A stretch of 37,621 nucleotides of DNA from an uncultured Desulfobacteraceae bacterium (lineage in GTDB: Bacteria > Desulfobacterota > DSM-4660 > Desulfatiglandales > B25-G16), in the NCBI GenBank assembly GCA_964655655.1, contig CAZZPR010000020.1, positions 1-37,621 on the forward strand, given 5' to 3'. The notes beneath the pieces were generated by a model that was not told where the DNA came from, made no database searches, and worked only from the letters and a program-made list of their open reading frames with translations. Shown piece by piece: positions 9,121 through 36,583 of this stretch. The first letter of the stretch is position 1. Each line of letters begins with the position of its first letter. A program made the position numbers and the translations under genes.

Positions 9121-10449
9121 TTAGAGTATGGGCAGATATTTTTCGATTTCATATTTGCTTACATGGACACGGTACCTGTCCCACTCGATTTTCTTGTTGG
9201 CCAGAAACTTGTTGAATATGTGGTCGCCAAGGGTTTCGCGCACCAATCTGCTTTTTTCAACCTCTTGCACCGCCTCGAAAAGGTTTCCGGGCAATGAACT
9301 GATTCCCGCCTGTTCCCTGGCAGCCTCGTCCATCTCATAAATATCCCTTTCTATGGGTTCAATGAGGGAATAGCCTTCCTCTACACCCTTCAATCCGGCC
9401 GCCAGCATAACCGAGAATGCCAGATACGGGTTGCAGGCCGGGTCAGGGGACCTGAGCTCCATCCTCGTTGCCTGCTCTTTGCCCGGTTTATACATGGGCA
9501 CCCTGATCATGGTGGACCGGTTCCGCCTGGCCCAGGAAATATAAACAGGCGCCTCGTACCCCGGAACAAGCCTTTTGTATGAGTTTACCCACTGATTTGT
9601 AACGGCGGTTATCTCCCTCGCGTGTGCCATAACTCCTGCTATGTAGGATTTTGCCACCGGTGACAGATTATAAGAATCCCGGGGATCATAAAAACTGTTG
9701 AGGTCGCCCTTGAACAGGGACTGGTGTATGTGCATGCCGCTTCCGTTTTCACCGAACACGGGTTTCGGCATGAAGGTGGCATAATATCCCTTGAGCCTAG
9801 CAATTTCCTTAACCGCTATCCTGTAGGTCATTGTCTTGTCCGCCATGGCCAGCGCCTCGTCATACCTGAGGTCGATTTCATGCTGGCTGGGGGCCACTTC
9901 ATGGTGACTGTATTCCACGCGAATCCCCATTTTTTGAAGTGCAAAGATCATCTCTCTTCTAAGGTCGCTTCCCAGGTCCAGGGGCCTGTTGTCGAAATAT
10001 CCGCCTTTGTCAAGGAACTTCGGCGAGTTTGGGTTTTCCAATAAAAAGAACTCCAGCTCCGGCCCGACATAGGCCCTAAACCCCTTTTCAGCAAGTCTTT
10101 TGGTCATCTTTTTCAATACATATCTGGGGTCTCCTTCATAGTGACTTCCGTCCGGCTGAAGAATATCGCAGAATAGCCTCGCCACCGGTTGATCGGCTGG
10201 CCTCCAGGGGAGGAACTGAAAGGTAGTCGGCTCGGGCATTGCTATCATATCACTCTCCTCGATCCTCGCAAACCCCTCAATGGAAGACCCGTCAAATCCC
10301 ATTCCCTCTTCCAGACCTTCCTCCAGCTCGGAAGGGGTAATGGCAAAGCTCTTCAGGATTCCGAGTACATCCGTAAACCAGAACTGTATGAAGCTGACAT
10401 TTTTCTCCTTGACAAGCTTCAGGACATCTTTTTTTGTTTGGCAAAGCAT
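9121..10449 (-). CDS. glnA: Glutamine synthetase type I.
   Basis: 442 aa. N-terminal beta-grasp 'VSFIQFWFTDVLG' and conserved GS catalytic-region motifs. Confidence 0.9.
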   Translation of the reverse strand: MLCQTKKDVLKLVKEKNVSFIQFWFTDVLGILKSFAITPSELEEGLEEGMGFDGSSIEGFARIEESDMIAMPEPTTFQFLPWRPADQPVARLFCDILQPDGSHYEGDPRYVLKKMTKRLAEKGFRAYVGPELEFFLLENPNSPKFLDKGGYFDNRPLDLGSDLRREMIFALQKMGIRVEYSHHEVAPSQHEIDLRYDEALAMADKTMTYRIAVKEIARLKGYYATFMPKPVFGENGSGMHIHQSLFKGDLNSFYDPRDSYNLSPVAKSYIAGVMAHAREITAVTNQWVNSYKRLVPGYEAPVYISWARRNRSTMIRVPMYKPGKEQATRMELRSPDPACNPYLAFSVMLAAGLKGVEEGYSLIEPIERDIYEMDEAAREQAGISSLPGNLFEAVQEVEKSRLVRETLGDHIFNKFLANKKIEWDRYRVHVSKYEIEKYLPIL

Positions 10450-12111: not shown

Positions 12112-13344
12112 CTATTCCAATACAGTATAAGCGGCTTCATGATGCTGTGTGATATCGAGACCCACCATTTCGTCTTCCCTTGTAACCCTCATTCCGAACA
12201 GGGCGTCCACCAGCAGGAAGAGGGCCCAGGTCATTGCTATTGCATAAACCGCACACACGCCCAGGTATATAGTCTGAATCAAAAACAGTCTGGTATTCCC
12301 GAAAAACAGCCCGTCCGCCCCCGCAGCATTGATGGCCTTTTGGGCGAAAAGTCCTGTTGCAAGTGTTCCCCACATTCCCCCAACTCCATGAACGCCGAAG
12401 ACATCAAGGGAATCATCGTAACCAAGCTTGGGCTTCAACGAGGTGACCGCTAAATACGAAAATATACCACCCGGAACCCCGATGGCTATTGCGGACAAGG
12501 GGCTTACAAAGCCGCAAGCCGGAGTTATGGACACCAACCCGGCAACTACGCCTGTTACTGTTCCCAATATAGTAGGTGCACCGTGCTGCTGCCACTCAAT
12601 CAGGGCCCAGGTAAGTCCCCCTGCAGCGGCTGCTATGTATGTTGTCATGAATGCATTTGCAGCAATCCCGCCTGCCTCTAAAGCACTGCCCGCATTAAAG
12701 CCGAACCAGCCGAACCATAAAAGGGCCGCCCCCAGTACGGTGATCGTTAGATTATGCGGGGTAAATGAATGTTTCTCATAACCCAATCTTTTTCCAGCCA
12801 GTATTGCCAGGACAAGGGCGGAGAACCCGGAGCTCACATGCACAACAATGCCCCCGGCGAAATCTAAAGCTCCAAGCTCTTTTAACCACCCTCCTGTTGA
12901 CCAGACCCAGTGAGCAATCGGTTCGTACACAAAAGTAGCCCACAGAAGCATCAAAAAGACGAATGCGGAAAACTTGATCCTTTCCGCAAAGGCACCCACA
13001 ATCAAGGCCGGTGTAAGTATTGCGAAAGTTGCCTGGAACATAACGAAGGCCATGTGGGGAATAGTGCCGGAGTAGTCCGGGTTGATCGTTATGCCCACCC
13101 CTTTTAACCCAACCCAGTCAAGGTTACCGATGATGCCGTGACCGGTGTCAGGCCCGAAAGATATGGAGTATCCATATATGACCCACTGCAATCCGATCAG
13201 GCACATCAGGACAAAGCATTGCATTAAAATGGAAAGTACATTCTTCCTCCGGGCCATGCCCCCGTAAAAGAAGGCTGCCCCGGGTGTCATGATAAACACC
13301 AGGGCTGCCGAAATCAGCACCCATACAGTATCACCTGAATCCAT
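12112..13344 (-). CDS. amt: Ammonium transporter.
   Basis: 410 aa polytopic membrane protein. Amt signature region 'DFAGGIVVHVSSGFSALV'. RBS 'ggaggtg'. Confidence 0.9.
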   Translation of the reverse strand: MDSGDTVWVLISAALVFIMTPGAAFFYGGMARRKNVLSILMQCFVLMCLIGLQWVIYGYSISFGPDTGHGIIGNLDWVGLKGVGITINPDYSGTIPHMAFVMFQATFAILTPALIVGAFAERIKFSAFVFLMLLWATFVYEPIAHWVWSTGGWLKELGALDFAGGIVVHVSSGFSALVLAILAGKRLGYEKHSFTPHNLTITVLGAALLWFGWFGFNAGSALEAGGIAANAFMTTYIAAAAGGLTWALIEWQQHGAPTILGTVTGVVAGLVSITPACGFVSPLSAIAIGVPGGIFSYLAVTSLKPKLGYDDSLDVFGVHGVGGMWGTLATGLFAQKAINAAGADGLFFGNTRLFLIQTIYLGVCAVYAIAMTWALFLLVDALFGMRVTREDEMVGLDITQHHEAAYTVLE

Positions 13345-13448: not shown

Positions 13449-13466
13449 AGCAAGGAAGGTGCCAAA
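13449..13466 (-). promoter_or_regulatory. Sigma-54 (-24/-12) promoter for amt-glnK(-flotillin-glnA).
   Basis: The minus-strand sequence reads 'tTGGCACcttccTTGCt', i.e. GG-N10-GC with consensus TGGCAC-N5-TTGC. It lies about 105 nt upstream of the amt ATG. Confidence 0.55.
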
Positions 13467-13664: not shown

Positions 13665-15248
13665 TCAACGGTAGAGCCTATAGTCGACCCCGTATTTATT
13701 TGCCTTATATGTGAATTTGCGCTCACTTATATTCAGCATCTTTGCCGCCTTTGACATGTTTCCCTGGGTATTTTTCAGGGCATCGATAATCATCTCCTTC
13801 TCAAGGCTGGCAACGGCGTCCTCCAAAGAGAGAGCTGGTATAGTATCCGACTGTTTACCTGTCTGCAGGCTCGGCGGCAGGTGATAACTGTGTACCACAC
13901 CCTCCTCGCAGAGCAGCACAGCGCGCTCGATACAGTTCTCGAGTTCCCTCACATTGCCCGGCCAGTGGTATTGAACCAGCATGTCGATAGCAGGGGTTGA
14001 AAACCTTCTGATATCCTTTTGGTTCTCTCTGGCATATTTTTCCAGGAAATAGTCGGCCAGCAGCAGTATATCAGTTTTGCGTTCCCTGAGGGGAGGCAGA
14101 TATATGGGAAAGACATTCAGACGGTAATAGAGATCGCTTCTGAAAGTTTCCCCCTCCAGGGCCTGTTCGAGGTTTTTGCTGGTTGCCGCAACGATCCTGA
14201 TATCCGCCTTGAGGGTTTGATGTCCGCCTACCCGCTCGAACTCTTTTTCTTGAAGCACCCTTAGTAGCTTTACCTGAACCTCCATATCAACGGAGCCTAT
14301 TTCATCCAGGAAAATCGTACCTTTACTGGCGAGCTCGAATTTACCCGGTTTTTGACGAATGGCCCCGGTGAACGCACCCTTTTCATGGCCAAAAAGCTCG
14401 CTCTCGATAAGGTTTGCAGGCAGTGCGGCACAGTTTACCTTGACAAATGGCTTTTGTGCCCTGGGACTGTTATAATGAATGGCGCTCGCCACCAGTTCTT
14501 TTCCGGTACCGCTTTCGCCCCTTATCAAAACCGTGGCATTGCTCTTACAGACCTGGGAGATCATCTGGTAGACCTCCCGCATTTTGTTGCTGTTGCCTAT
14601 GATGTTGGTGATATGGTATTTTCTGGAAAGCTCATCCCTTAATCTTATGTTTTCCTGCCTCAGCTTCTCTTTTTCAAGGTGCAGGCTTTCCAGGTTTATA
14701 ACATGCTGTGCTATCATGGTTGCAATTATTGAAAGGAGCCTCTCCCCGTCTTTAAGGGAATAGGATTCATCATAGGGCCTGTCAACACTCAGGGTGCCTA
14801 CAACCTGTTCCCCTTTTTTTACAGGAACACAGATAAAGGAAAGCTCCTGATCGTGGATAGCCCTTCTTGTGGCGGTGCGATCGAGAAAAGAGGGTTCCTG
14901 GCTGATTTTAGGTACCACCAAGGCCTTTCCGGTCTGGATTACCCTTCCTGTGACGCCTTCTCCTATGGAGTATTTTCCCCTCTCCATGGCGGCCAGGGGC
15001 ATGCCGTGGGCCACCTCAATCCTGATTTCGTTTCTAAGGGGATTAAGGATAGTTACAGTTCCCCGCACCATCCCCATAGAGTTTGAAAGGATCTCCAGCA
15101 CCCTGTAAAGCGATTTCCTAAGGTCCAATGTCTCACTGAGGGCATTGGTTATCTCATAGAGAAGGGCGAGTTCCTCGGTCTTTCTTATAGAAACATTATC
15201 CATCATTGATGATTTTTCCATAGCAATGATTTTTATCAAATAAAGCAA
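13665..15248 (-). CDS. Sigma-54-dependent transcriptional activator with an N-terminal GAF domain (NifA/NtrC-like bEBP).
   Basis: Walker A 'GESGTGKE', a GAFTGA-type loop '[10 protein letters not shown]', an R-finger region and a C-terminal HTH ([15 protein letters not shown]). Confidence 0.85.
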
Positions 15249-15524: not shown

Positions 15525-17069
15525 CTATTCAACATTGTACATTATAATTTGACTTCTTCCGGAACTTTTTTGGATGGATAATACCAATTCCAGACCCTGG
15601 CCGTCTTGGGACTTCTTCAGGCAATAACCCGTTATCGGTCCGGGCATATCTTTGGTCTTCCACTTGGTGGCAATACTCAAACCGTCCCATTGGAGGAAAT
15701 GCATTCTACCGCTTGAAAACATCCTGTTTTTTTCAGTCATTCTATTAATAGAAGACTTGTTCTTGCATACAACCACTTCCTTAATACCGTTATTGTCCAG
15801 GTCGCTTAAAAGCATAGGGGGGGAAAAATGAAACCATTTCTCAGTACCTACATCTCTTCCCTGGGCAACCATGTGAATGTCAAGCCCTCCGAATTCATCC
15901 TCGCTCTTCCATATTCTGTCGCCGTCCTGGGTAACAAGAAACAGAAATTCCGTTTCCGGGCTTAATACCATGGTTTCTACAGAGCCTCCACCTGTCAAGC
16001 TTCCCTTGACAAAGTTGAACACATTTGCCATTGAGGGGAGCGTCAGGGGTTCCGCTTTTGTAAAATGGTTACCGTCCCTGTTCAATACGTATACGTGACC
16101 CGAAAATCCTCCCCCGGTAAGCCTTTTCTGGCCTATCAGGGTTTCACCTTTATCAGGTAGATTTACAACTCGAAAAAACCACCTCTGTCCCTTTGATATA
16201 ACTTTGAAATCCCCGGAACTCCATTCCAGAACAAAGGAGGACAGGGTGGACCCGGCAAGATTTGATACATATATCTCCTCCCTGCCGTTCTTATCCATGT
16301 CTCCTATAGAAACGTATACAAATTCGGGAGACCAGCTTCCCTGGATCTTTCTAAGCTCGGCAAAGGCCTTTTCCTGCCACTTGTATATATAAACAGTATC
16401 GCTATCAATACACACCAGTTCATCCTTGCCGTCTCCATCCACATCACCTGAATCCATGCCTATAATACCGGTCTTGAATGACTGAACGTGACCGATATCC
16501 TTTTTTTGCAGGCCCTCTGCTACTTTAATAAGCCCAGACCTTTTCTCTGTGCCCCCAGGCTTTTGTACGTAAACCGGTTCCCTGGTGGACCGCCCCAAAA
16601 TCTTGGCATTAATATCCTTTGCAAACTGGTTTATGGCGGGAATCACCTCGTCCATGCCCTTGGACTGGTTGAATGCAGTCACCAGTTTCTCTCCCTTGTC
16701 CACGTCCAGTATGCTGGCATCCATGCTGACACTTTCACCGAAAACGGTGAGGCTTCCTATAATCACATAATCCGCACCCAGGGATTTTCCTGCCTTTATA
16801 CCGGCGTCCTTGTCCAACCTGCCTTTAAGACGGGTTAGTTCTTCTTTCACGAGCCTCTCTTCGGCAACAACAACCTTGTCCTTCCATGCTAAACGGGATG
16901 AAAGCATGTCCACTATGCCTTCCTGCAAAAAAGAAAGGTCCCTGTCTGCGTTGATTTTGAAGGGCATTACAGCCACCTTTTTTATATTTTCCGAATATGC
17001 CGTATTTCCCAGGCAAACGATGATAAAACCCAGGGTAAATATTAAAACCCTAATACCCTTTTTTCCCAT
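15525..17069 (-). CDS. Secreted beta-propeller protein with FG-GAP/Ca-binding repeats and an N-terminal TolB-N/CsgG-like domain.
   Basis: Signal peptide 'MGKKGIRVLIFTLGFIIVCLGNTAYS'. Repeated 'DxDxDGxxE' motifs (DVDGDGKDELV, DMDKNGREEIYV, DLDNNGIKEVVV). RBS 'aagggggag'. Confidence 0.55.
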   Translation of the reverse strand: MGKKGIRVLIFTLGFIIVCLGNTAYSENIKKVAVMPFKINADRDLSFLQEGIVDMLSSRLAWKDKVVVAEERLVKEELTRLKGRLDKDAGIKAGKSLGADYVIIGSLTVFGESVSMDASILDVDKGEKLVTAFNQSKGMDEVIPAINQFAKDINAKILGRSTREPVYVQKPGGTEKRSGLIKVAEGLQKKDIGHVQSFKTGIIGMDSGDVDGDGKDELVCIDSDTVYIYKWQEKAFAELRKIQGSWSPEFVYVSIGDMDKNGREEIYVSNLAGSTLSSFVLEWSSGDFKVISKGQRWFFRVVNLPDKGETLIGQKRLTGGGFSGHVYVLNRDGNHFTKAEPLTLPSMANVFNFVKGSLTGGGSVETMVLSPETEFLFLVTQDGDRIWKSEDEFGGLDIHMVAQGRDVGTEKWFHFSPPMLLSDLDNNGIKEVVVCKNKSSINRMTEKNRMFSSGRMHFLQWDGLSIATKWKTKDMPGPITGYCLKKSQDGQGLELVLSIQKSSGRSQIIMYNVE

Positions 17070-17215
17070 CCGAACTCTCCCCCTTAATAATCCTTTTTGT
17101 TAATAAGGTACTAACATTACTAAAGCTCAATGTAAAATCAAATAAAAACTCGCTGTGCATGACTTTTCTCAATTCTTTTTCTCTTTCCAATCCGCCAAAT
17201 ACGGTTCATATTGCT

Positions 17216-17375
17216 TCAACTTTGACGGACTCGTAAAAAGCTCAAATTCAAGGCGCGCAAATCCTGAGGAATGAGGCGTGCTTTATGGTACGCTGCAGTG
17301 ACCTGGCTGCAGCAGGCAGGCGAAGGATGCAGCGCAACGCAGAAGTTGGACTTTTTACGAAGCCATCAACTTTGA
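17216..17375. mobile_element. MITE-like element: about 140-bp GC-rich insert with imperfect 14-bp terminal inverted repeats, flanked by the 10-bp direct repeat TCAACTTTGA.
   Basis: Direct repeat 'tcaactttga' at 17216-17225 and 17366-17375. The inner ends 'ggactcgtaaaaag' (17227-17240) and 'ctttttacgaagcc' (17351-17364) are reverse complements of each other at 12 of 14 positions. The interior has hairpin potential (ctgcag-tgacctgg-ctgcag). Confidence 0.4.
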
Positions 17376-17515
17376 TTTATTCCTGAGAAAAGCAATGCCA
17401 TTATTTTTTGAATTCGGGATTTTGCAGTGATAAGCATTTCTCGACAGGAAAAGCACCGGGTATTTACACCAAATCCGGGCTCCAAATTCTGATACACAAA
17501 ATTTTTGAAATACCA

Positions 17516-17544
17516 TTGACAAAGAAACTGGCTAAATCTATAAG
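17516..17544 (+). promoter_or_regulatory. Sigma-70-like promoter TTGACA-N17-TATAAG, about 90 nt upstream of hdrA.
   Basis: Read directly. The -35 is at 17516-17521 and the -10 at 17539-17544. Confidence 0.35.
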
Positions 17545-17631
17545 TATCCAAACGGGAACAGTGCCCCGGGCTGTGTGCATAAAATATTCATAATTTTAAA
17601 AAAAATAGATATATTTTTAACTGGTGCCTAA

Positions 17632-20600
17632 ATGAAAAACAATATTACCGGATCAGTGATGGTGGTTGGCGGGGGAATTACAGGAATGCAGGCCTCTCTG
17701 GATCTTGCCGATTCGGGTTATTATGTTTACCTTGTTGAAGGCTCTTCCTCCATAGGCGGCGTTATGTCGCAGCTGGACAAGACCTTCCCCACTAATGACT
17801 GCGCAATGTGAATAATCTCCCCTAAACTGGTCGAGGTCGGCCGGCACATTAACATTGAATTGATGACCCTCTCAGAGGTGAAGGGCATAAAAGGGGAGGA
17901 GGGTAAATTTGAAGTAAATGTTATCCAACACCCCAGGTATGTGGATACAAACAAATGCATAGCCTGCGGTTTATGTGCGGAAAAATGTCCCAGAAAGGTG
18001 GATGACGAGTATAATCAGTCACTGAATAAAAGAAAGGCCATATATCTCCAATACCCCCAGGCCGTGCCCCTTAAATATGCCATCGACTCAGAAAACTGCA
18101 TCTTTTTTCAAAAGGGTAAATGCAGGGCCTGTGAAAAGTTCTGTCCAAGCGGGGCCATTGACTTCGAGCAAAAGGAAGAAAAACGTACCGTAAACGTAGG
18201 CTCTGTAATAATGTGCCCCGGGTTTGATATATTTGACCCGGCGGTACATGATACGTACGGTTACACCAAGGCACCCAACATCATAACCAGTATTGAATTC
18301 GAAAGGGTTCTCGCTTCCTCCGGACCTTACGGCGGTCACATGGTAAGGCCGTCGGACGGCAGGGAGCCGGAGAAGATTGCATGGCTTCAATGCGTGGGTT
18401 CAAGGGATGTGCACCAGGGTGCCAACTCTTATTGTTCTGCTGTTTGCTGTACCCATGCCATAAAAGAGGCCCTTGTTGCAAAAGATCACAAAAAGGGGGG
18501 TTTGGATACCGCTATATTCTTCATAGATATCAGGGCATCGGGCAAGGATTATGAAAGGTATTACAACCGGGCCAAGGACCAGCAGGGCGTAAGATTCATT
18601 AAATCCAAGATCACCCATGTAAAACATATCCAGGAAACAGGTAACCTGCTCATAAGGTACACCGATGAGCAGGGAAAAAGGGTAGAGGAAGAATTTGATA
18701 TGGTGGTGCTTTCCGTGGGCTTTTTCGTATCAAAAAGGCTGCGGGAATTCGCAGAAAAAATAGGCATAGAACTGGACCATCACAACTTTCCCGAGACAAA
18801 AAGTTTTGCCCCCGTGCAAACCAATAAACCGGGTATCTATATCTCGGGCTGCTTCCACTCTCCCAAGGACATACCTTCTGCTGTAACGGATGCAAGTGCT
18901 GCAGCGGCCAACGCAGGGGGCACCCTTTCGGTTTCCAGGTTTACATTGACCAAAAAAAAGGAATTGCCCCCGGAAATCCCAGCATTGGAAATAAAAGGTG
19001 AGAGGCCACGTATAGGGGTGTTCGTCTGCCAATGCGGAACCAACATTGCAGGTGTTGTGGATGTGCCGGAGGTAGCGAAGTACGCTGAGTCCCTTCCTTT
19101 TGTGGAATATACGGAGCAAAATCTTTTCAGCTGTTCCCAGGACACCCAGGAAACCATAGCCAAGGCCATAAAGGAAAACAAATTAAACAGGGTAGTGGTC
19201 GCATCCTGTACACCCAAGACACACGAGCCATTGTTCCAGGAAACAGCAAGAGAGGCCGGGATCAACAAATACCTATTTGAGATGGCCAACATAAGAAACC
19301 AGTGTTCCTGGGTGCATTCAGAATACCCTGAAGAGGCAACGCAAAAGGCCAAGGATTTGGTTGCAATGGCGATAAGGAAGTCCGCACTTCTTGAGCCGCT
19401 TCAGGAGGCAGAGCTTAACGTAACCCAGGCCGCCCTGGTTATAGGCGGGGGCATAGCAGGAATGAACGCGGCCAAAAACCTGGCCGAACAGGGATACAAG
19501 ACCTGTCTTGTGGAAAAAACCGGCAAGCTGGGAGGAAACGCCCTCAGGCTTTACCGGACCTGGAAAGGAGAAGATATACAGGAAAACCTAAAAGGCCTTA
19601 TTTCAAGCATAGAATCCCAGAAAAACATAGAGGTACTTCTTGACACAGAGATAAAGGAGGTGGAGGGATTTGTAGGCAATTTCATAACAACCCTTGTTAC
19701 CGGTGAGCAAGAAAAAAAGATAGAGCACGGTGTTGTAATTGTAGCCACCGGTGCAAAGGAATTGCTCCCCGAGGAATATCTGTACGGCACTGACTCCCGG
19801 GTGGTTACCTCCCTGGAGCTTGATGATATGTTTATAAATGGGGATAAAAGCCTGGAGGAAACAGGTACCTGCGTATTTCTTCAGTGCGTAGGTTCCCGAA
19901 TACCGGAAAGGCCCTACTGCTCCAGGGTATGCTGCACACATTCCGTGGTAAGCGCACTCAGGTTGAAGGAAGTAAAGCCGGATATGGACATATTTATCCT
20001 TTACCGGGATATGAGGACCTACGGGCTGAGGGAGGAAATCTACAGGGAGGCAAGGGATAAAGGCATAAAGTTCATTCGCTTTGACAATGAAGAGGATATG
20101 AATGTGGAAACCACGGAACAGGGGCTTTCAGTTGCCTTTATTGATTTTACCCTGAGAAGAAAGATGCGGATAAACCCGGATTTACTGGTCTTGGCTTCTG
20201 CCATTGTAAAAAGCGACGGAGAATCTCTGGCAAGACAATTCAAGATATCTTTAAACCAGGATGGCTTCTTCACTGAGGCCCATGTAAAGCTCAGGCCGGT
20301 GGATTTCGCCACGGACGGGGTGTTTTTGTGCGGCCTTGCCCACTCCCCCAAGCCAATTGACGAATCGGTAATCCAGGCACAGGCGGCGGCATCAAGGGCG
20401 GTTACTTTGCTGTCCCGGAAGACCATACACAGCAGCGGTAATGTGGCGGCAGTTGATCCAAGTTTCTGCAGCAGCTGCGGTGTGTGCATTGCCGTGTGCC
20501 CGTTCAGTGCCCCTGAATTCAACCAGGATACGGGCAAGGCGGAGATAAATCCGGTAATATGCAAGGGATGCGGGCTGTGTGTGGCCTCTTGCAGGTCCGG

Positions 20601-20655
20601 TGCCATCCACCTTAACGGGTTTGACGAGAATCAGATAATGTCCATGATAGCTTGA
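17632..20655 (+). CDS. hdrA: HdrA-like FAD/Fe-S flavoprotein (heterodisulfide reductase subunit A family), predicted selenoprotein with an in-frame TGA (Sec) at 17809-17811.
   Basis: The ORF track starts at 17860, but the same frame is open from ATG 17632. It encodes '[62 protein letters not shown]', which is the canonical HdrA N-terminus (…[13 protein letters not shown](I/L)…) with TGA where the second Cys sits. A SECIS-like hairpin 'ctggtcg-AGGT-cggccgg' lies at 17827-17844. Downstream are multiple Cx2Cx2Cx3CP ferredoxin motifs and a second FAD/NAD fold '[12 protein letters not shown]'. Confidence 0.8.
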
Positions 20656-20709
20656 TATGTTTACCGGAATTAGTTGCAATAAATTATGAAAAAATACAGG
20701 GAGAATAAG

Positions 20710-21141
20710 ATGAACGACTGGAGTCCGAGAATCACTGCCTTTCTTTGCAACTGGTGCAGTTATGCGGCGGCTGATCTGGCCGGAATAAACCGGATGCAAT
20801 ACCCCCCTAATATCAGGGCCATCAGGGTACCGTGCTCCGCAAGGGTGGATCCGAAGTTCATTCTGCATGCCTTGAGGAACGGCTCAGACGGAGTATGGGT
20901 TTCCGGGTGACACCCCGGGGAATGTCATTACCTGGAAGGTAATTATTATGCCAGAAGAAAGTTTGCGCTCTTAAAAAATTTCCTGGAGCATTTAGGGATG
21001 GGGCCTCAAAGGCTTACCTTTTCCTGGATTTCATCCTCGGAGGCCGGAAAATTCGCTGAGGTAGCCACGGAGGTAGTCGAAAAAGTAAAGGAGGTTGGCC
21101 CGATAGAAAGACTTGTAAAGAAAAGGGCCGAGGTAGCCTGA
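20710..21141 (+). CDS. mvhD: MvhD-like [2Fe-2S] electron-transfer protein (methyl-viologen-reducing hydrogenase delta subunit family), predicted selenoprotein with TGA (Sec) at 20908-20910.
   Basis: The tracked ORF ends at the TGA (…DGVWVSG*). Reading through gives '[22 protein letters not shown]…', which matches the MvhD 'VSGCHPGDCHY' motif. The N-terminus has 'FLCNWCSY' and 'VPCSARVD'. A hairpin 'attacc-tggaa-ggtaat' lies 17 nt after the TGA. RBS 'agggaga' precedes the ATG at 20710. The stop overlaps the next start (TGATG). Confidence 0.75.
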
Positions 21142-22091
21142 TGAAGGAATACACGGAAAAGATAAGAGAGGCGGCAAAAAAAATCTTGGAGGAAAACAAG
21201 GTTGATGTGGTCATCGGCTTCAAAAAGGGATCCGCTCCCTTTATGGTGGAGCCGGTTTTAATAAGGGACAGTGAACAGTCCGATCAACTTTACTGGAGCA
21301 GTTTCTGCTTTATCAACCTCGCCAATTATCTGCCAAAAAGAGAAGATAAAGTAGGAATAATGGCAAAGGGCTGCGATTCCAGGAATATTGCCCTTCACAT
21401 AATAGAAAACCAGATAAACAGGGAACAGCTTTATATAATAGGCATACCTTGCAGGGGAATGGTGGACAGAAGAAAGATAGTGTCCTCTCTAAAAGGCAAA
21501 GAGGTTACAGAGGTTGAGGAATCGGAAAAAGAAATTGTGGCCAAAGGGGAAGGCTTTGAGCAAACCTTTAACCGGGAAGATTACTTGCAGGAGAATTGCA
21601 AAACCTGTATGCACCGAAACCCCGTAATATATGACGAGCTTGTGGGGGAGCCGGTCAAGGAAAGGGAAGAACCGGACCCCTATGAGGATGTGAAGGATAT
21701 AGAAGAAAAGGAATCGGAAGGTAAGTGGGAGTTTTTCTCGGATCTTATCAAGGATTGCATCCGTTGCTACGCCTGCCGAAATGCTTGCCCCTTATGCTAT
21801 TGCCCCGTTTGCTTTGTGGAGGAATCCGACCCTCAGTGGGTGGGCAAGAGTATTGACCCGGTTGATACCATGACCTTTCACATCCTCAGGGCCTATCACT
21901 GTGCCGGCAGATGTACGGACTGCGGGGCATGTGAACAATCCTGCCCCATGGAAATCCCGGTCAGGCAATTTACAAGAAAATTAAACAAGGACGCCCTCGA
22001 GCTGTTCAATCACGAGGCCGGGCTGAGCACAGAAGAAAGGCCTCCCCTGGATACCTACAGGCCCGACGACTATGATGAATTTATGAGATAA
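21141..22091 (+). CDS. Di-[4Fe-4S] cluster protein, possibly an FrhB/FdhB-like electron-transfer subunit.
   Basis: Two motifs, 'CIRCYACRNACP' and 'CTDCGACEQSCP'. The N-terminal roughly 200 aa lack recognisable Cys motifs. Confidence 0.55.
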   Translation: MKEYTEKIREAAKKILEENKVDVVIGFKKGSAPFMVEPVLIRDSEQSDQLYWSSFCFINLANYLPKREDKVGIMAKGCDSRNIALHIIENQINREQLYIIGIPCRGMVDRRKIVSSLKGKEVTEVEESEKEIVAKGEGFEQTFNREDYLQENCKTCMHRNPVIYDELVGEPVKEREEPDPYEDVKDIEEKESEGKWEFFSDLIKDCIRCYACRNACPLCYCPVCFVEESDPQWVGKSIDPVDTMTFHILRAYHCAGRCTDCGACEQSCPMEIPVRQFTRKLNKDALELFNHEAGLSTEERPPLDTYRPDDYDEFMR

Positions 22092-22102
22092 TAAGGTGAT
22101 TA

Positions 22103-23140
22103 ATGGAAGATAAGATAATAAAAAAGGCAGAATTATCCAATTTCCTTGATTCCTTGAAAAAGAACTACGAGGTATTTGTTCCGGTAAAGGAAAAGGGCTT
22201 TTACGAGTTCAGGCCTTTTGCAGATCAACATGGCCTGGATCAGGATTTTACCAACACCCGGCTTTCACCGAAATCATTCCTGTTTCCCCAGTCCGAGAGG
22301 ATGCTTGAATTTGATCTGGATGAGCAAAAAGACGACGCCTATATACCCAAGGAGGTCCCAAAGGAATACCCGCCTGCTGTAATAGTTGGCATCAGGCCTT
22401 GCGACGCCAGGGCATTAAGGCTGATAGATGTAAACTTCAATAATCCGGAGTTCAAGGACCCCTGGTGGTTGAGGCATCTCCAGTCAATGGTTTTCGTGGG
22501 TCTGGGCTGCAATCAACCGGAAAGTACCTGTTTTTGCACTTCCGTAGGCGGCGGACCATTTAATGAGGAAGGTCTGGACATACTCCTTTTTGACCTGGAG
22601 GGAGATTATCTGGCCAGGCCCCTTACGGAAAAAGGCGATAACCTTTTAAAAGAAGCCGGGGTAAAGACCAAGGCGGACAAGGGCGCAAAAAGTAAGGCCC
22701 AAGAACTCAAGAAAGAGGCGGAAAACCGGATTAAAAGCCACGTGCCCACTGAAAAACTGAAAGAAAAAAACATGCTTGAGCTTTTCGATGCACCCTTCTG
22801 GGACGACGTTGCTTTTGCCTGCATCAACTGCGGTACCTGCACGTTCCTTTGCCCAACCTGCTGGTGTTTCGATATTCAGGATGAGGTTCAAAAAGATACG
22901 GGTGACAGGATAAGAAACTGGGACAGCTGCATGTTTCCCCTTTTTACCCTTCACGCCTCGGGCCATAATCCGAGATCGGAGAAGGTGCAGAGGGTAAGGC
23001 AAAGATTCATGCACAAATTAAAATATTATGTAGACAGATACCAAAACGGGGTTGCCTGCGTTGGATGCGGCAGATGCATTAAACACTGCCCGGTGAATAT
23101 TGATATTCGAGAAGTGTTCAAACTCATGAACGATCTTTAG
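22103..23140 (+). CDS. AsrA / sulfhydrogenase-beta-like Fe-S subunit.
   Basis: 345 aa with 'CINCGTCTFLCPTCWCF' and 'CVGCGRCIKHCPVN'. Size and Cys spacing are typical of anaerobic sulfite reductase subunit A and Pyrococcus HydB. Confidence 0.6.
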   Translation: MEDKIIKKAELSNFLDSLKKNYEVFVPVKEKGFYEFRPFADQHGLDQDFTNTRLSPKSFLFPQSERMLEFDLDEQKDDAYIPKEVPKEYPPAVIVGIRPCDARALRLIDVNFNNPEFKDPWWLRHLQSMVFVGLGCNQPESTCFCTSVGGGPFNEEGLDILLFDLEGDYLARPLTEKGDNLLKEAGVKTKADKGAKSKAQELKKEAENRIKSHVPTEKLKEKNMLELFDAPFWDDVAFACINCGTCTFLCPTCWCFDIQDEVQKDTGDRIRNWDSCMFPLFTLHASGHNPRSEKVQRVRQRFMHKLKYYVDRYQNGVACVGCGRCIKHCPVNIDIREVFKLMNDL

Positions 23141-23178
23141 GCAATCAACCAATTTACTGCCATTTTCAGGAGGATCAA

Positions 23179-24024
23179 TTGAAAGAAAATCCGTATCTCC
23201 CTTATCCGGTGAGGATTCAAAAGATCTTCACAGAAACAGAGGATAAGAACCTTAAGACATTCAAGTTGACCTTTCTAAATAAAAAAGGCGAGAAAAATTT
23301 TTCTTATATCCCCGGCCAGTTTTGTGAGCTCTCCATAGCGGGAAAAGGCGAAATACCCATAGGAATAGCCTCCTCCCCTACGGAGAAGGGGTTTCTAATG
23401 TTTACCGTTAACAAGACCGGTGTAGTTACCACCTTTCTTCACAATATGAAGGAAGGGAACGTAATGGGTATCAGGGGCCCCCTGGGCAACTGGTATCCCT
23501 GGGAAGAGATGGAGGGCAAAAATGTTGTTATAATAGGGGGAGGGTTCGCATTTACCACTCTGAGATCCAGCATTATATACATGCTCCATCCGGAGAACAG
23601 GAAAAAATTCAAGGATATTACCGTGGTTTACGGTGCAAGGTCCCCCGGGCTCCTGCTTTACAGGGAAGAGCTCACCGAATGGGAAAAGAGGGATGACCTT
23701 GATATGCACATAACGGTGGATGCCACCGATGACCCCGACTGGCCCTATAACGTAGGCTTTGTTCCCGCCATAACTGAGAAAAAGGTTACCACGAGCGAGG
23801 ATACCTACGCCCTGGTATGCGGACCGCCCATCATGATTAAGTTTACACAACCGGTGCTGGAAAAGGCGGGATTTACTCCCGAACAGATAATCATGTCACT
23901 GGAGATGAGGATGAAATGCGGAATAGGTATATGCGGAAGATGCAACATCGGGGATAAATATGTATGCAAGGACGGCCCTGTCTTCTCCCTGGCCCAGCTA
24001 AACAACCTGCCCAAGGAATACTAA
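23179..24024 (+). CDS. AsrB / HydG / PyrK-like FAD- and NAD(P)H-binding oxidoreductase with a C-terminal [2Fe-2S].
   Basis: FNR-like fold (flavin-binding region around 'IRGPLG', NAD site '[10 protein letters not shown]') and C-terminal 'CGIGICGRC'. Confidence 0.7.
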
Positions 24025-24983
24025 ACCCCCAAATCCTTGAGTTCCTCTATCAGAGATCTCTGGGTCCTGGTCAATTTCTTAGGCACCGAGACATTCAACT
24101 TCACATAGGCATCCCCCCTGCCCTTTCCGGCGATCCTCGGCATGCCCTGACCTTTCAACCTTAGCATCGAGCCGCTCTGGAATCCGGGAGGCACTTTCAA
24201 GCTAAGTCTTTTACCGTCAATGGTGGGTACCTCTATGTTTGTGCCCAGGGCCGCCTCTGAAAATTTTACCTGCCTGGCCAGGTAAAGGTCCTCGCCTTTC
24301 CTTTGAAACACAGGGTGTTCCAGCACCTTTATTTTTATATAAAGATCCCCCGGAGGGCCCCCCCTATATCCCGGCCTTCCCTTACCAGCCAGACGCAACT
24401 TTTTCCCGCTTTCTATTCCAGGCGGTATCTTGACCCTGACCTGCTGGGAAATACCATCTGGATTATAAAAGATAGTCTTTTCCGTTACCTTGACTATATC
24501 CTCAAGGTTCACAGGCAGTTCATAAACCAGATCCTGACCCTTGACAACTCCCTCTTCACCTGCACCTTCACCGAAAATAGAATCAAAAGGGTCAATTCTG
24601 GTCCTGTACCTGGGGCCCCTTCCAGCCCCGGAAAAAATCTGGCTGAATATACCGCCCCCGCTTCCCTTCCTGAATCCACCGAGGTTACCGAACCCGAATT
24701 CTTTGAAAATATCGCTGAAGTCAAATCCTTTAAATATGTCTTCCTGGCTGTATTTTTGTTTGAATCCCTCGGAGCCAAACATATCGTACTGTTTCTTTTT
24801 TTCCGGGTCGCTCAGAACGGCATATGCCTCGCTTATATCCTTGAACCTGTTTTCGGCCTGCTTATTCCCCTTATTTCTGTCCGGATGGTATTGCATGGCC
24901 AGTTTCCTGTACGCCTTCTTGATCTCCTCGGGACTGGCAGACCTGTTTACACCCAATACTTTGTAATAATCCTTGCCCGTCAT
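24021..24983 (-). CDS. DnaJ-domain co-chaperone, CbpA-like (no zinc-finger region).
   Basis: J domain 'DYYKVLGV…HPDRN', a Gly/Phe-rich linker and C-terminal substrate-binding domains. No CxxCxGxG repeats. Confidence 0.8.
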
Positions 24984-25069
24984 TTTTCTGGTTTTATTTG
25001 TTTGAAATCCTAAGGATTAATTATCCATAGAATATTATTCTTGAAATATAAGCAGGACAGGCGCCAAAG

Positions 25070-34686: not shown

Positions 34687-35754
34687 ATGGGTAAGGTATC
34701 CTTTTTTGCCCCGGGCAGGCTAATGATTGTGACCGGTTTACTTTTTGGTGCACTCGCTTCACTGCTAACCGAATGGGGCAATCCTGCCAATATGGGTATC
34801 TGTGTAGCCTGTTTCTATAGAGATATTGCCGGCGCAGTCGGGCTTCACCGGGCAGCTGTTGTCCAGTATATCCGACCTGAAATACTTGGATTTATATTTG
34901 GCGCATTCTTTTCTTCCCTTGGCTTCCGGGAATTTAGGGTAAGGGGCGGCTCCTCCCCTCTAGTCCGCTTTCTGTTGGGCACGTTCTTTATGATCGGCGC
35001 CCTGGTCTTTTTAGGATGCCCCATCCGTGCGCTTCTGAGGCTCGCCGGCGGAGACCTCAACGGTGTTACCGCTCTGGCGGGGGTTGTATTCGGGGCAATC
35101 ATCGGTATACAGTTCCTTAAAAACGGCTTTACACTGGGAAGATCATCAAGTATGCAGGCGTCGATAGGAGGACTTATGCCGTTAATATCCACCGGTTTCC
35201 TCCTGATGGTTATATTCAGGCCGGATTTCCTGTTTTTCAGTAAAAAGGGGCCCGGCTCCTTGCATGCCCCTATCTGGATCGCCCTGTTTACCGGTCTGTT
35301 GTTAGGCTTCCTGGCCCAGAGGACAAGGATGTGTTTTGTCGGGGGATGGAGGGACCTGATGCTGGTAAAGGATTCTTATCTCTTCAAGGGTGTTGCCTGT
35401 TTCTTTATAGGGGCAATAATTCTGAATGCAATACTCGGCGGCCATATCCACTGGGGTTTTACCGGGCAGCCAGTCGCCCATGATAATCATATATGGAACT
35501 TCCTGGGAATGACCCTTGCCGGACTGACCGCTACCCTTTTAGGTGGATGCCCCTTGCGTCAAACCATTTTAACGGGAGAAGGTGACTCAGATGCCGCCTT
35601 GACCGTGCTCGGCCTGGTTGCCGGTGCCGGCATTTCCCATAATTTCAACCTGGCCAGCAGCCCCAAGGGTGTGGGCGAATGGGGTCCGCTGGCGGTTATA
35701 ATAGGCCTTGCATTTTCCATTGCTATAGGGGTTTTAATGAGAGAAAAATCATAA
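34687..35754 (+). CDS. yedE: YedE/YeeE-family membrane protein (sulfur/selenium-compound transporter family).
   Basis: 355 aa polytopic protein with the two conserved Cys-containing re-entrant motifs 'GICVACF' and 'GCPIRALLR' in pseudo-repeat halves. Confidence 0.7.
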   Translation: MGKVSFFAPGRLMIVTGLLFGALASLLTEWGNPANMGICVACFYRDIAGAVGLHRAAVVQYIRPEILGFIFGAFFSSLGFREFRVRGGSSPLVRFLLGTFFMIGALVFLGCPIRALLRLAGGDLNGVTALAGVVFGAIIGIQFLKNGFTLGRSSSMQASIGGLMPLISTGFLLMVIFRPDFLFFSKKGPGSLHAPIWIALFTGLLLGFLAQRTRMCFVGGWRDLMLVKDSYLFKGVACFFIGAIILNAILGGHIHWGFTGQPVAHDNHIWNFLGMTLAGLTATLLGGCPLRQTILTGEGDSDAALTVLGLVAGAGISHNFNLASSPKGVGEWGPLAVIIGLAFSIAIGVLMREKS

Positions 35755-35765
35755 GGAGGCTTGAA

Positions 35766-35978
35766 ATGATAGAGGTCGATGCACGGGGTCTTTCCTGTCC
35801 TATCCCGGTGGTCAGGAGCAAGAAGGCTATCGATGAAAACCCCGGGGATAAGATACTGGTGATAGTAAACGAGGCAACCCAGAGGGATAATGTAACCCGA
35901 CTGGCAAAAAGCAGGGGCTACAACATAAAGGTAGAGGAAGTTCAAGATGAATACCGGCTTGAGCTGAAACCTGCATGA
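35766..35978 (+). CDS. yedF: TusA/SirA-fold sulfur (selenium) carrier protein, YedF-like.
   Basis: 70 aa, 'MIEVDARGLSCPIPVV' CPxP motif. RBS 'aaggagg' 6 nt upstream. The tracked ORF start at 35679 is an upstream extension. Confidence 0.7.
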   Translation: MIEVDARGLSCPIPVVRSKKAIDENPGDKILVIVNEATQRDNVTRLAKSRGYNIKVEEVQDEYRLELKPA

Positions 35979-36583
35979 ATTCGCTAATCACGGATAGCCG
36001 GAAAAGGGCTTCCTATATCAAAGGAGATATTAAACCTATGCTTTTTCTTAAAAGAAAAAAATCATACTCCGCCGATGGTCAAGGCCTGATTCTGTTTGAC
36101 CAAGTACCGGATGCGATGAAGGCAGAGAGATGCCTCAAGGAATCCGGTTACAAGGTCAAGCTGGTAGCGCCTCCCCCTGAAATACGTAAAGGTTGTGACC
36201 TTGCCGTACAGATAAATCTGGTGGAACAGCCCGGTATCGATAGGGTGCTAACCCAAAAGGGTGCTGACTTCATTGAAATAGTCCACGCGGGCGCAAATGG
36301 GGCTGAAATACTGGATATCGTAAAAGTAAAGGATTTCGGAAATGCTACCATGGTAAAGGCGGGAAATATGAAGCTGTCGTTTGACAATAAAACCGGAGTT
36401 GTTCTCAACACCTCGGGAGGAGGGTGCCCGGATATACCTTATCTTCATGCGGAAATGTTAAATAAAAAACTGACCGAGGCCCCAAGACCCAGGCAAATCG
36501 GCTTTACCCTCTGCGCCCTTATGCTGGATAGGGCCCTGGAAGAATGCCTGGAAATCTGGAAAGGGGGAAACCGAAAATGTTGA
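35975..36583 (+). CDS. DUF3343-like (putative Se/S carrier) N-terminal domain followed by an uncharacterised C-terminal domain.
   Basis: 'LILFDQVPDAMKAERCLKESGYKVKLVAPPPEIRKGCDLAVQI' fits the small DUF3343 fold, recalled from memory. The C-terminal 100 aa contain 'SGGGCPD'. The start is ambiguous between 35975 and 36038. Confidence 0.45.
   Translation: MNSLITDSRKRASYIKGDIKPMLFLKRKKSYSADGQGLILFDQVPDAMKAERCLKESGYKVKLVAPPPEIRKGCDLAVQINLVEQPGIDRVLTQKGADFIEIVHAGANGAEILDIVKVKDFGNATMVKAGNMKLSFDNKTGVVLNTSGGGCPDIPYLHAEMLNKKLTEAPRPRQIGFTLCALMLDRALEECLEIWKGGNRKC

Follow-up and report, generated by a model that had tools for sequence, protein, structure and literature searches.

Flx-Hdr systems, also described as Hdr/Flox, are encoded by clusters with the gene order hdrCBA-flxDCBA (PMC12125255; PMC4215793; PMC5947623 for Hdr/Flox). 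They have been proposed to transfer electrons from NADH to both ferredoxin and DsrC (PMC4215793; PMC5539420; PMC10553843; PMC6687939), in a reaction that would be reversible and run in the reverse direction during fermentation (PMC4215793; PMC12125255; PMC5539420). FlxA is the predicted NADH dehydrogenase (PMC4759654), and a passage of PMC10553843 credits Ferreira et al. (2023) with a direct interaction between DsrC and Flx-Hdr. The systems are widely distributed among deltaproteobacterial sulfate reducers, SEEP-SRB included (PMC5539420; PMC10553843); Flx-Hdr mutants of Desulfovibrio alaskensis show growth phenotypes (PMC4215793), and in Bilophila, Flx-Hdr is essential for gut colonization (PMC12125255). 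In sulfate reducers and syntrophs, Flx-Hdr is thought to be a main route linking NAD(P)H, ferredoxin and DsrC. Here, we describe a five-gene operon at positions 17632 to 24024 of a 37.6-kb stretch of DNA from an uncultured Desulfobacteraceae bacterium (the window, which was the sole part of the genome available for analysis) and argue that it is likely to be an hdrA-flxDCBA operon, belonging to the Flx-Hdr (Hdr/Flox) family of cytoplasmic, NAD(P)H-linked, HdrA-based bifurcating/confurcating systems.

All five genes lie on the plus strand, are co-oriented and have confirmed reading frames. The first, hdrA (17632-20655), encodes a predicted selenoprotein of 1007 amino acids, a fused tandem ("pseudo-dimer") HdrA, and is followed by mvhD/flxD (20686-21141; 151 amino acids when counted from 20686), which encodes a [2Fe-2S] adaptor and is likewise a predicted selenoprotein gene. 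Next come an flxC-like gene (gene 3; 21141-22091; 316 amino acids) for a shortened, FdhB/FrhB-like iron-sulfur (Fe-S) protein, an flxB-like gene (gene 4; 22103-23140; 345 amino acids) for a HydB/ShyB/AsrA-like Fe-S protein with a Fer4_22 domain and, finally, an flxA-like gene (gene 5; 23179-24024; 281 amino acids) for a HydG/AsrB/PyrK-like flavin adenine dinucleotide (FAD)/NAD(P)H protein with a C-terminal [2Fe-2S] cluster. Since both the content and the order of these genes equal those published for hdr(CB)A-flxDCBA, the operon would represent a system that already has a name, and the window contains the co-oriented order hdrA-flxD-flxC-flxB-flxA. Gene 5 provides the FlxA-type FAD/NAD(P)H flavoprotein, and two Fe-S proteins (genes 3 and 4) and an MvhD homologue (gene 2) make up the remainder, a composition in keeping with the one that Ramos et al. 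reportedly gave in 2015, in which FlxB and FlxC are Fe-S proteins and FlxD is an MvhD homologue. The preliminary description of this locus had called it a candidate uncharacterized electron-bifurcating oxidoreductase and had suggested that flxABCD be sought elsewhere in the genome; in fact, the equivalents of flxDCBA are genes 2 to 5 of the operon itself. What the locus offers is one more example of a system that is already known, named and widespread, not a system of a new kind.

The FlxABCD-HdrABC systems of Desulfovibrio vulgaris, D. alaskensis and Bilophila wadsworthia have the same gene content and order from hdrA onward. The operon described here differs from them in that it lacks hdrC and hdrB, in that its HdrA is a 1007-amino-acid fused dimer, and in that both HdrA and FlxD are predicted selenoproteins. 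HdrB and HdrC, which belong to the same operon in the canonical system, are thus not encoded here, and across the 37.6-kb window no gene for a CCG protein (HdrB/HdrD), a hydrogenase or DsrC was found, in agreement with the earlier observation that HdrBC and hydrogenase are missing; a tblastn search of the window with CCG, HdrD, DsrC, NuoEF and GltD-like queries did not yield a match either. The unusual features of this operon, namely, the lack of a CCG or DsrC gene in cis, a BamE-type fused HdrA and the presence of two selenoproteins, are each common to many other genomes.

In the first half of HdrA (residues 1 to approximately 450), a TrxR-like FAD domain carries the motif C57-x2-U60 (U, selenocysteine) and K278, the lysine in CCTHAIK, as well as an inserted two-cluster ferredoxin domain. 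The second half (residues approximately 457 to 1007) begins with an HdrA N-terminal domain and ends with a C-terminal two-cluster ferredoxin domain; between them lies a second FAD domain, which lacks the CxxC/U motif, the inserted ferredoxin domain and the lysine, the position of K278 being taken by V773. The two halves are 28 to 32% identical to each other. While the NCBIfam HdrA2 and HdrA models matched strongly (6.5e-292 and 5.9e-228), the matches fell under the equivalog cutoffs (970 versus 1100 bits), and Protein Data Bank (PDB) chain 5odc_A matched in three permuted stretches: residues 18 to 379 resemble residues 155 to 510 of M. wolfeii HdrA (the FAD domain plus the inserted ferredoxin domain), residues 457 to 635 resemble residues 2 to 180 (the N-terminal domain and the start of the second FAD domain), and residues 869 to 1004 resemble residues 507 to 644 (the C-terminal ferredoxin domain).

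This layout is that of BamE, the fused HdrA dimer of the class II benzoyl-CoA reductase of Geobacter metallireducens, in which the bifurcating FAD sits in the first TrxR-like domain, beside Lys280 and Cys59-Cys62, and a nonbifurcating FAD sits in the second domain (bioRxiv 10.64898/2026.04.10.717634). High-potential electrons leave BamE via a flavin-adjacent cluster toward a CCG subunit and low-potential electrons leave via the inserted ferredoxin domain, and BamF, a selenocysteine-containing MvhD-type adaptor, passes electrons on from an NADH module (bioRxiv 10.64898/2026.04.10.717634). Compared by description with BamDEF(GHI), the HdrA encoded in the window has C57/U60 in place of C59/C62 and K278 in place of K280, and the combination of a BamE-type fused HdrA dimer with an MvhD-type adaptor is present as the preprint describes it. 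We conclude that HdrA is, judging by its residue pattern, a BamE-like fused dimer of which only half 1 appears to retain the marks of a bifurcating flavin, and the cysteine pattern predicts seven [4Fe-4S] clusters, as in BamE. The input side is different: that of the Bam complex, BamGHI, is NuoEFG-like, whereas the operon described here has the HydG/HydB/FdhB-like Flx proteins, and, unlike BamF, the MvhD encoded in the window is of normal length (143 to 151 amino acids) and has its selenocysteine in a GxHxGxCHY motif rather than near the N terminus. BamB (the tungsten AOR), BamC, BamD (the CCG protein) and the NuoEFG-like BamGHI are absent from the window. An HdrL-type identity could be ruled out for this HdrA, as the GltD-like insertion is absent. 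The HdrL-MvhD loci of Desulfobacterium autotrophicum encode a selenocysteine-containing HdrA-type protein followed by mvhD and, often, an fdhB-like gene (PMC2702500); the HdrA studied here is distinct from HdrL in lacking the GltD/NfnB-like insertion that many relatives of the operon do carry.

The assignments of the other four proteins are supported by domain and structure matches for every subunit, which upheld both the original parts list and, as a proposal, the electron path drawn from it. MvhD, a normal-length FlpD protein, matched Pfam FlpD (7.1e-55) and NCBIfam VhuD (1.1e-38), with 7bkb_F (1.9e-46) and 5odc_D as its best PDB matches. Gene 3, previously noted as an extra di-[4Fe-4S] protein, is indeed an Fe-S protein, with two C-terminal [4Fe-4S] motifs, but its identity as an FdhB/FrhB-like adaptor had been missed: in addition to four invariant cysteines in its N-terminal part (78, 104, 153 and 156) and weak Pfam matches to FrhB_FdhB_N/C (below the cutoff) and Fer4, it matched 7bkb_E (1.9e-27) and 8rvu_E, subunits that are seated on MvhD in Hdr supercomplexes. 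An AlphaFold2 model of gene 3 based on a 12-sequence alignment was of low confidence (mean predicted local distance difference test score, 61.7), and the corresponding Foldseek matches, with 7bkb_E and 8rvu_E on top, followed by FrhB chains, therefore merely corroborate the sequence result. Chains E and F, the best-matching solved relatives of gene 3 and MvhD, respectively, are neighbors within a single complex, that of formate dehydrogenase and Hdr (7BKB). Gene 4 matched Pfam Fer4_22 (1.2e-34), PDB chain 9nez_B (1.7e-48) and, all under the cutoff, NCBIfam HydB (6.9e-52), ShyB and AsrA. Similarly, gene 5 matched Pfam FAD_binding_6, NAD_binding_1 and DHODB_Fe-S_bind, PDB chain 9nez_C (2.9e-57) and, again under the cutoff, NCBIfam PRK08345 (6.6e-73), HydG and AsrB; it is presumed to contain the NAD(P)H site of the complex. 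The proteins encoded at 21141 to 24024 thus do match Fe-S and flavoprotein families.

Genes 4 and 5 share fold and cofactor motifs with the NAD(P)H-oxidizing beta-gamma pair of Pyrococcus furiosus sulfhydrogenase I (9NEZ) and with AsrAB, but the window contains neither hydrogenase subunits nor AsrC, and the scores are well under the equivalog cutoffs, both for the sulfhydrogenase (HydABDG/ShyABCD) beta and gamma subunits (176 versus 750 and 196 versus 650 bits) and for AsrA and AsrB (156 versus 323 and 178 versus 289 bits). The names AsrA/AsrB and HydB/HydG, under which these genes had initially been introduced, therefore stand as resemblances only. On the basis of these scores and of the absence from the window of AsrC and of hydrogenase alpha and delta subunits, both an AsrAB/sulfite reductase and a sulfhydrogenase were rejected as identities for the locus, as was a methanogen-type MvhADG-HdrABC hydrogenase, given that the window has no MvhA/MvhG or HdrBC. 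The idea that genes 4 and 5 only happen to adjoin hdrA-mvhD and constitute a separate NAD(P)H:sulfur/sulfite module of the AsrAB or sulfhydrogenase beta-gamma type, to which these resemblances could point, is extremely improbable in view of scores this far under the cutoffs (176 versus 750, 156 versus 323 and 178 versus 289 bits), the missing AsrC and hydrogenase alpha/delta subunits, and a five-gene order that is conserved across phyla.

The claim that the operon encodes two selenoproteins was borne out by comparison with homologues. The in-frame UGA codon of hdrA (17809-17811), which encodes U60, the second residue of the CxxC-type pair, is followed by a candidate selenocysteine insertion sequence (SECIS) hairpin at 17827-17844 (CUGGUCG-AGGU-CGGCCGG; 7 bp; -9.1 kcal/mol), and that of mvhD (20908-20910), encoding U75 in VSG-U-HPGECHY, is followed by a hairpin at 20927-20943 (AUUACCUGGAAGGUAAU). 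Among 56 homologues of hdrA, 45 have TGA at this position and 11 have a cysteine codon; the hairpin CTGGTCGAGGTCGGCCG was found downstream of the codon in all 45 TGA copies and in none of the 11 cysteine copies. For mvhD, the corresponding numbers are 65 TGA and 15 cysteine codons among 80 homologues, with the hairpin ATTACCTGGAAGGTAAT in 63 of the 65 TGA copies and 0 of the 15 cysteine copies. Additionally, a comparison of the two types of copies showed synonymous sites to be frozen in the TGA copies only. Minimum-free-energy folding of the 60 nucleotides after each UGA was not significant by itself (z scores of -0.43 and +0.35), and the case for the SECIS elements therefore rests on comparative conservation. 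With a UGA codon and a hairpin in each gene, the expected features of bacterial selenoprotein genes are in place, and we conclude from these sequence comparisons that both codons are genuine selenocysteine codons. Neither a tRNA-Sec gene nor selAB was detected, in a search confined to the window.

Relatives of the operon are numerous. Among 90%-identity clusters, gene 3 has 7307 relatives and gene 4 has 7999, and 360 clusters at 50% identity matched gene 3 with an E value of ≤1e-30; a scan of a species-genome collection (one genome per species) yielded at least 583 confirmed matches to gene 3. A detailed survey was performed on the best 80 loci, each from a different species genome. Without exception, these loci belong to Desulfobacterota and include Desulfobacterales, Desulfatiglandales, Syntrophobacterales, Desulfacinum, Desulforhabdus, Desulfobacterium N47 and SEEP-SRB2. 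The complete five-gene order is present in 55 of the 80 loci, is interrupted by a contig end in 18 and deviates in 7; this conservation, which is far beyond chance, confirms the earlier view of five tightly packed, co-oriented genes as a unit. In five of the seven deviating loci, flxDCBA stands beside housekeeping genes, without an adjacent hdrA. Two of these four-gene flxDCBA sets (MvhD-G3-G4-G5, with G3 to G5 denoting genes 3 to 5), in loci L011 (5395-8961) and L069 (9568-12976), are located beside prfA/prmC or miaA/rubrerythrin genes.

A CCG protein is encoded in cis in 22 of the 80 loci, in three forms: an HdrD-like gene, with an in-frame TGA of its own, after gene 5 (13 loci), HdrC-like and HdrB-like genes after gene 5 (2 loci), or a pair consisting of a six-helix membrane/Fe-S protein and a CCG protein before hdrA, like the "HdrF" of D. 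autotrophicum (7 loci). In 13 of the 80 loci, dsrC directly follows gene 5; NuoE/NuoF-like genes are found upstream in 6, and HdrA is of the HdrL type, with a 473-amino-acid GltD/NfnB-like insertion, in about 24. Among the 21 loci with adequate flanks on both sides, 12 encode a CCG protein and 5 encode DsrC, with 3 encoding both, so that 14 have at least one of the two in cis and 7 have neither. The absence of HdrBC in cis is therefore a minority state in a family whose members usually encode a CCG partner or DsrC nearby. Only three of these 21 loci (L009, L016 and L047) are completely bare. The window and its closest relatives have no CCG or dsrC gene in cis, and L009, one of those relatives, shares the downstream convergent dnaJ-like gene and contains a 129-amino-acid open reading frame (ORF) that matches the QueF-like ORF of the window in size and position. 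Because L009 shares both the form and the flanking genes, we consider the bare form a stable state of this lineage rather than an accident of assembly.

Two further observations concern individual partners. The HdrD-like gene after gene 5 (L029, 13175-14392; also L022, L045, L085 and others) has its in-frame TGA in the context LPE-U-GHAYY and would therefore be a third selenoprotein of the system in Syntrophobacterales-type loci. In L045 (5506-6924) and about 24 other loci, a GltD/NfnB-like insertion (Fer4_20 plus Pyr_redox_2) is situated between HdrA residues 155 and 163 and would therefore add a second pyridine-nucleotide site to that of FlxA, in an NfnAB-like combination.

The link to the Desulfovibrio Flx-Hdr systems is provided by synteny with a Syntrophobacterales cluster, the Hdr/Flox cluster of Syntrophobacter fumaroxidans (Sfum_1969-1977), which encodes FloxABCD, two HdrA proteins and, in place of HdrBC, HdrD (PMC5947623). 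This, too, is a noncanonical Desulfobacterota Flx cluster without HdrBC. Two Syntrophobacterales loci from our survey, L022 and L029, have the order HdrA-MvhD-HdrA-MvhD-G3-G4-G5-HdrD, which fits the S. fumaroxidans cluster and thereby ties genes 2 to 5 to FloxD to FloxA of PMC5947623. The HdrA-MvhD-G3-G4-G5 core of these two loci shows 52 to 74% identity, but their extra HdrD after gene 5 and second hdrA-mvhD pair have no counterpart in the window.

Outside Desulfobacterota, relatives of gene 3 that are 32 to 45% identical occur in a five-gene unit with an HdrA of approximately 1010 to 1030 amino acids. In a Dehalococcoidia (Chloroflexota) locus (L086), the five-gene core is followed by HdrD; in an Aegiribacteria locus (L089), hdrA-flxDCBA is followed by HdrC and HdrB, with dsrC adjoining; and in a locus on a Bathyarchaeota chromosome (L087), a gene for a GcvH-like protein comes after the core and a CCG protein is encoded close by. 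A contig labeled "Deltaproteobacteria" (L088) has the order AOR(BamB-like)-FeS-HdrD(BamD-like)-HdrA(1023 amino acids)-MvhD-G3-G4-G5-UbiD. From Desulfobacterota to Chloroflexota and Bathyarchaeota, a core of HdrA, MvhD and FdhB-like, HydB-like and HydG-like proteins is encoded in a constant gene order. The HdrA of this core is a fused dimer of the BamE type with a single flavin predicted to be competent for bifurcation, and the module for high-potential output (HdrD, HdrBC, a membrane pair, dsrC, AOR or GcvH) is swapped or omitted. The genes after the five-gene unit of L087 (7001-11169) specify the GcvH-like protein, of the lipoyl-carrier type, the small CCG protein and a 1252-amino-acid HdrL-like protein, and a lipoyl protein might be the carrier there in place of DsrC. 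L088 (1-11372), for its part, resembles a class II benzoyl-CoA reductase cluster, with the NuoEFG-like BamGHI of Geobacter replaced by the Flx genes, which are followed by a UbiD-family gene.

We infer that the five proteins form one complex, through which electrons would flow from NAD(P)H toward a point of bifurcation in HdrA. NAD(P)H would reduce the FAD of gene 5 (FlxA-like), from which single electrons would pass via its [2Fe-2S] cluster to the clusters of gene 4 (FlxB-like) and those of the FdhB-like gene 3 (FlxC-like), and then, via the [2Fe-2S] cluster of MvhD/FlxD, to the half-1 flavin of the fused-dimer HdrA (C57-x2-U60 and K278). NAD(P)H at gene 5 is the presumed donor because, in the solved Hdr and BamE systems, electrons enter the HdrA flavin from an adaptor of the MvhD type. 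The half-1 flavin would split the electron pair, with the low-potential electron leaving via the inserted ferredoxin domain to ferredoxin and the high-potential electron passing via a flavin-adjacent [4Fe-4S] cluster to a CCG partner, of the HdrD or HdrBC type, and from there to DsrC or another protein disulfide of this kind; operation in reverse might also be possible. Since neither the CCG partner nor DsrC is encoded in the operon, they would have to be encoded elsewhere in the genome, and such partners in trans are plausible given the five loci in which flxDCBA lies apart from hdrA. While the substrates had been described as impossible to deduce from the sequence, family membership points to NAD(P)H, ferredoxin and, by way of a CCG protein, DsrC as the likely ones, with the acceptor suggested by the partner genes of relatives (CCG protein in cis in 22 and dsrC in cis in 13 of the 80 loci).

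Several points weigh against this assignment. The window, as the 37.6 kb of genome available, contains no gene for a ferredoxin, just as it contains none for a CCG protein or DsrC, and the acceptor is therefore deduced from relatives. No Flx-Hdr complex had been purified as of Price et al. 2014 (PMC4215793), and, there being no purified complex in the literature examined, bifurcation is unproven for the family as a whole. Furthermore, the likeness to Desulfovibrio FlxABCD-HdrABC (DVU2399-2404) is one of published description and not of sequence alignment, the sequence does not distinguish NADH from NADPH as the donor, and the L088 locus indicates that the five-gene unit can serve another output, an AOR/BamB-like enzyme. 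Finally, gene 3, which is approximately 100 amino acids shorter than FdhB and has a poor AlphaFold2 model, may or may not have retained a flavin.

We speculate, although we consider this unlikely, that the bare HdrA-FlxDCBA unit is a portable "power pack" for bifurcation, self-contained and driven by NAD(P)H, that operates in this lineage without any CCG subunit. In that case, a protein di- or trisulfide might be a direct substrate of the C57-x2-U60 selenenylsulfide, or different output enzymes might serve in turn as docking partners of the unit in trans; the latter is hinted at by the partners that the core has across phyla (HdrD, HdrBC, a membrane HdrF-like pair, an AOR/BamBCD-like set or a GcvH-like protein).

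Each of the other explanations that we considered has less support than membership in the Flx-Hdr family. It seems improbable that the five-gene unit drives a docked low-potential reductase, such as an AOR/BamB-type tungsten enzyme, with Flx replacing BamGHI and HdrA-MvhD replacing BamE-BamF. The gene order of L088, from the BamB-like AOR to UbiD, would fit such a role, as would the BamE fused-dimer layout of HdrA with its near-identical residue numbering and the NuoE/NuoF-like (BamG/H-like) genes upstream in some relatives; however, genes for AOR, BamC and BamD-like proteins are absent from the window, where the neighbors of the operon are housekeeping genes, and the recurring partners in the 80 closest loci are HdrD, HdrBC or HdrF-like proteins and DsrC rather than AOR. 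We attach a similarly small probability to the possibility that no CCG subunit is needed at all and that HdrA, through its own C57-x2-U60 pair, acts directly on a protein disulfide or trisulfide (of DsrC, thioredoxin or a similar protein) as the reductase, making the complex an NAD(P)H-linked, possibly ferredoxin-linked, selenoprotein disulfide reductase. The bare form does recur (in the close relative L009 as well as in L016 and L047), gene 5 has a thioredoxin gene immediately after it in L001 and L024, and the selenocysteine belongs to a CxxC-type pair that in BamE forms a flavin-adjacent disulfide (bioRxiv 10.64898/2026.04.10.717634). Yet in solved HdrA-type systems this pair is an internal relay and no substrate site (bioRxiv 10.64898/2026.04.10.717634), and 14 of the 21 adequately flanked relatives carry a CCG protein or dsrC in cis. 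Moreover, the flx genes can sit apart from hdrA, and missing neighbors are therefore weak evidence of missing subunits.

Very little likelihood is left for the notion that gene 3 encodes a true formate dehydrogenase or F420-type beta subunit, with the complex being formate dependent via an FdhA encoded elsewhere. FdhB chains are the best PDB matches of gene 3, many of its homologues are named "formate dehydrogenase subunit beta" by the Joint Genome Institute, and hdrA/hdrL-mvhD-fdhB-fdhA loci do exist, in D. autotrophicum (PMC2702500; compare the Fdh-MvhD-Hdr complexes of methanogens). In the Fdh-MvhD-HdrABC complex of Methanospirillum hungatei (7BKB) and the Elp-Hdr complex of Methanothermobacter marburgensis (8RVU), an FdhB-like subunit docks on MvhD, which leads to HdrA. 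Compared with these complexes, however, the operon lacks FdhA and HdrBC, its electron source is an NAD(P)H module with an NAD(P)H-binding subunit encoded in the operon itself, and the product of gene 3, with FrhB_FdhB Pfam matches under the cutoff, falls short of FdhB by some 100 residues; in all loci examined, gene 3 is followed by HydB-like and HydG-like genes and never by fdhA. The bare, two-selenoprotein version found here would be a compact candidate for purification of the core and for tests of its partner requirement.

With respect to the structure of the operon, the gap between hdrA and mvhD is 30 nucleotides, mvhD and gene 3 overlap in TGATG, and the gaps between genes 3 and 4 and between genes 4 and 5 are 11 and 38 nucleotides, respectively. 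These values agree with those first reported, TGATG being the only overlap, with one reservation: for mvhD, the ATG at 20710 is the more probable start codon, which would yield a protein of 143 amino acids and extend the first gap to 54 nucleotides. This start is favored because AGGGAG is located 7 nucleotides upstream and because solved MvhD chains align from residue 9 or 10 onward. For gene 5, an AGGAGG at 23168-23173, upstream of the TTG, supports this codon as the start.

At either end, the operon is closed by a gene on the opposite strand: a divergent gene for an FG-GAP protein upstream (15525-17069, minus strand) and a convergent dnaJ-like gene downstream (24021-24983, minus strand). The stop codon of gene 5 (TAA, 24022-24024) overlaps that of the dnaJ-like gene (24021-24023, minus strand); a terminator therefore cannot fit between the two genes, and transcription of the operon must end within the antisense gene. 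The AT-rich intergenic region between the FG-GAP gene and hdrA (17070-17631), read on the plus strand, is the presumed, as-yet-unmapped promoter region. Scans for sigma-70 promoters and terminators returned matches at chance level only, among them weak sigma-70-like matches 5' of hdrA, and the sigma-54 promoter consensus, scanned for since a sigma-54 activator gene is nearby, was not found in 17070-17631. An Rfam scan of 17000-25000, SECIS family included, gave nothing real. Within the otherwise AT-rich stretch of approximately 560 nucleotides upstream of hdrA, positions 17270 to 17360 are GC rich and contain short inverted repeats (gctgcagtgacctggctgcagcaggcagg...), which were not matched by Rfam.

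The remainder of the window consists of housekeeping genes, including carAB, glnA, amt, a sigma-54 activator gene, a trpS-like gene and scpAB, among others. A perfect sigma-54 promoter consensus (TGGCACCTTCCTTGCT) is located at 13449-13464 (minus strand), approximately 105 nucleotides upstream of the ammonium transporter gene amt (12112-13344, minus strand). This site, the only perfect match found, adjoins a GAF/sigma-54 activator gene (13665-15248) and glnA (9121-10449), and the amt, sigma-54 activator and glnA stretch looks like a nitrogen-regulated block. Lastly, positions 34687 to 36583 contain a gene for a YeeE/YedE-like "sulfur transport" protein followed by a gene for a putative selenium/sulfur carrier protein, which may serve selenium or sulfur trafficking in a genome that makes selenoproteins.

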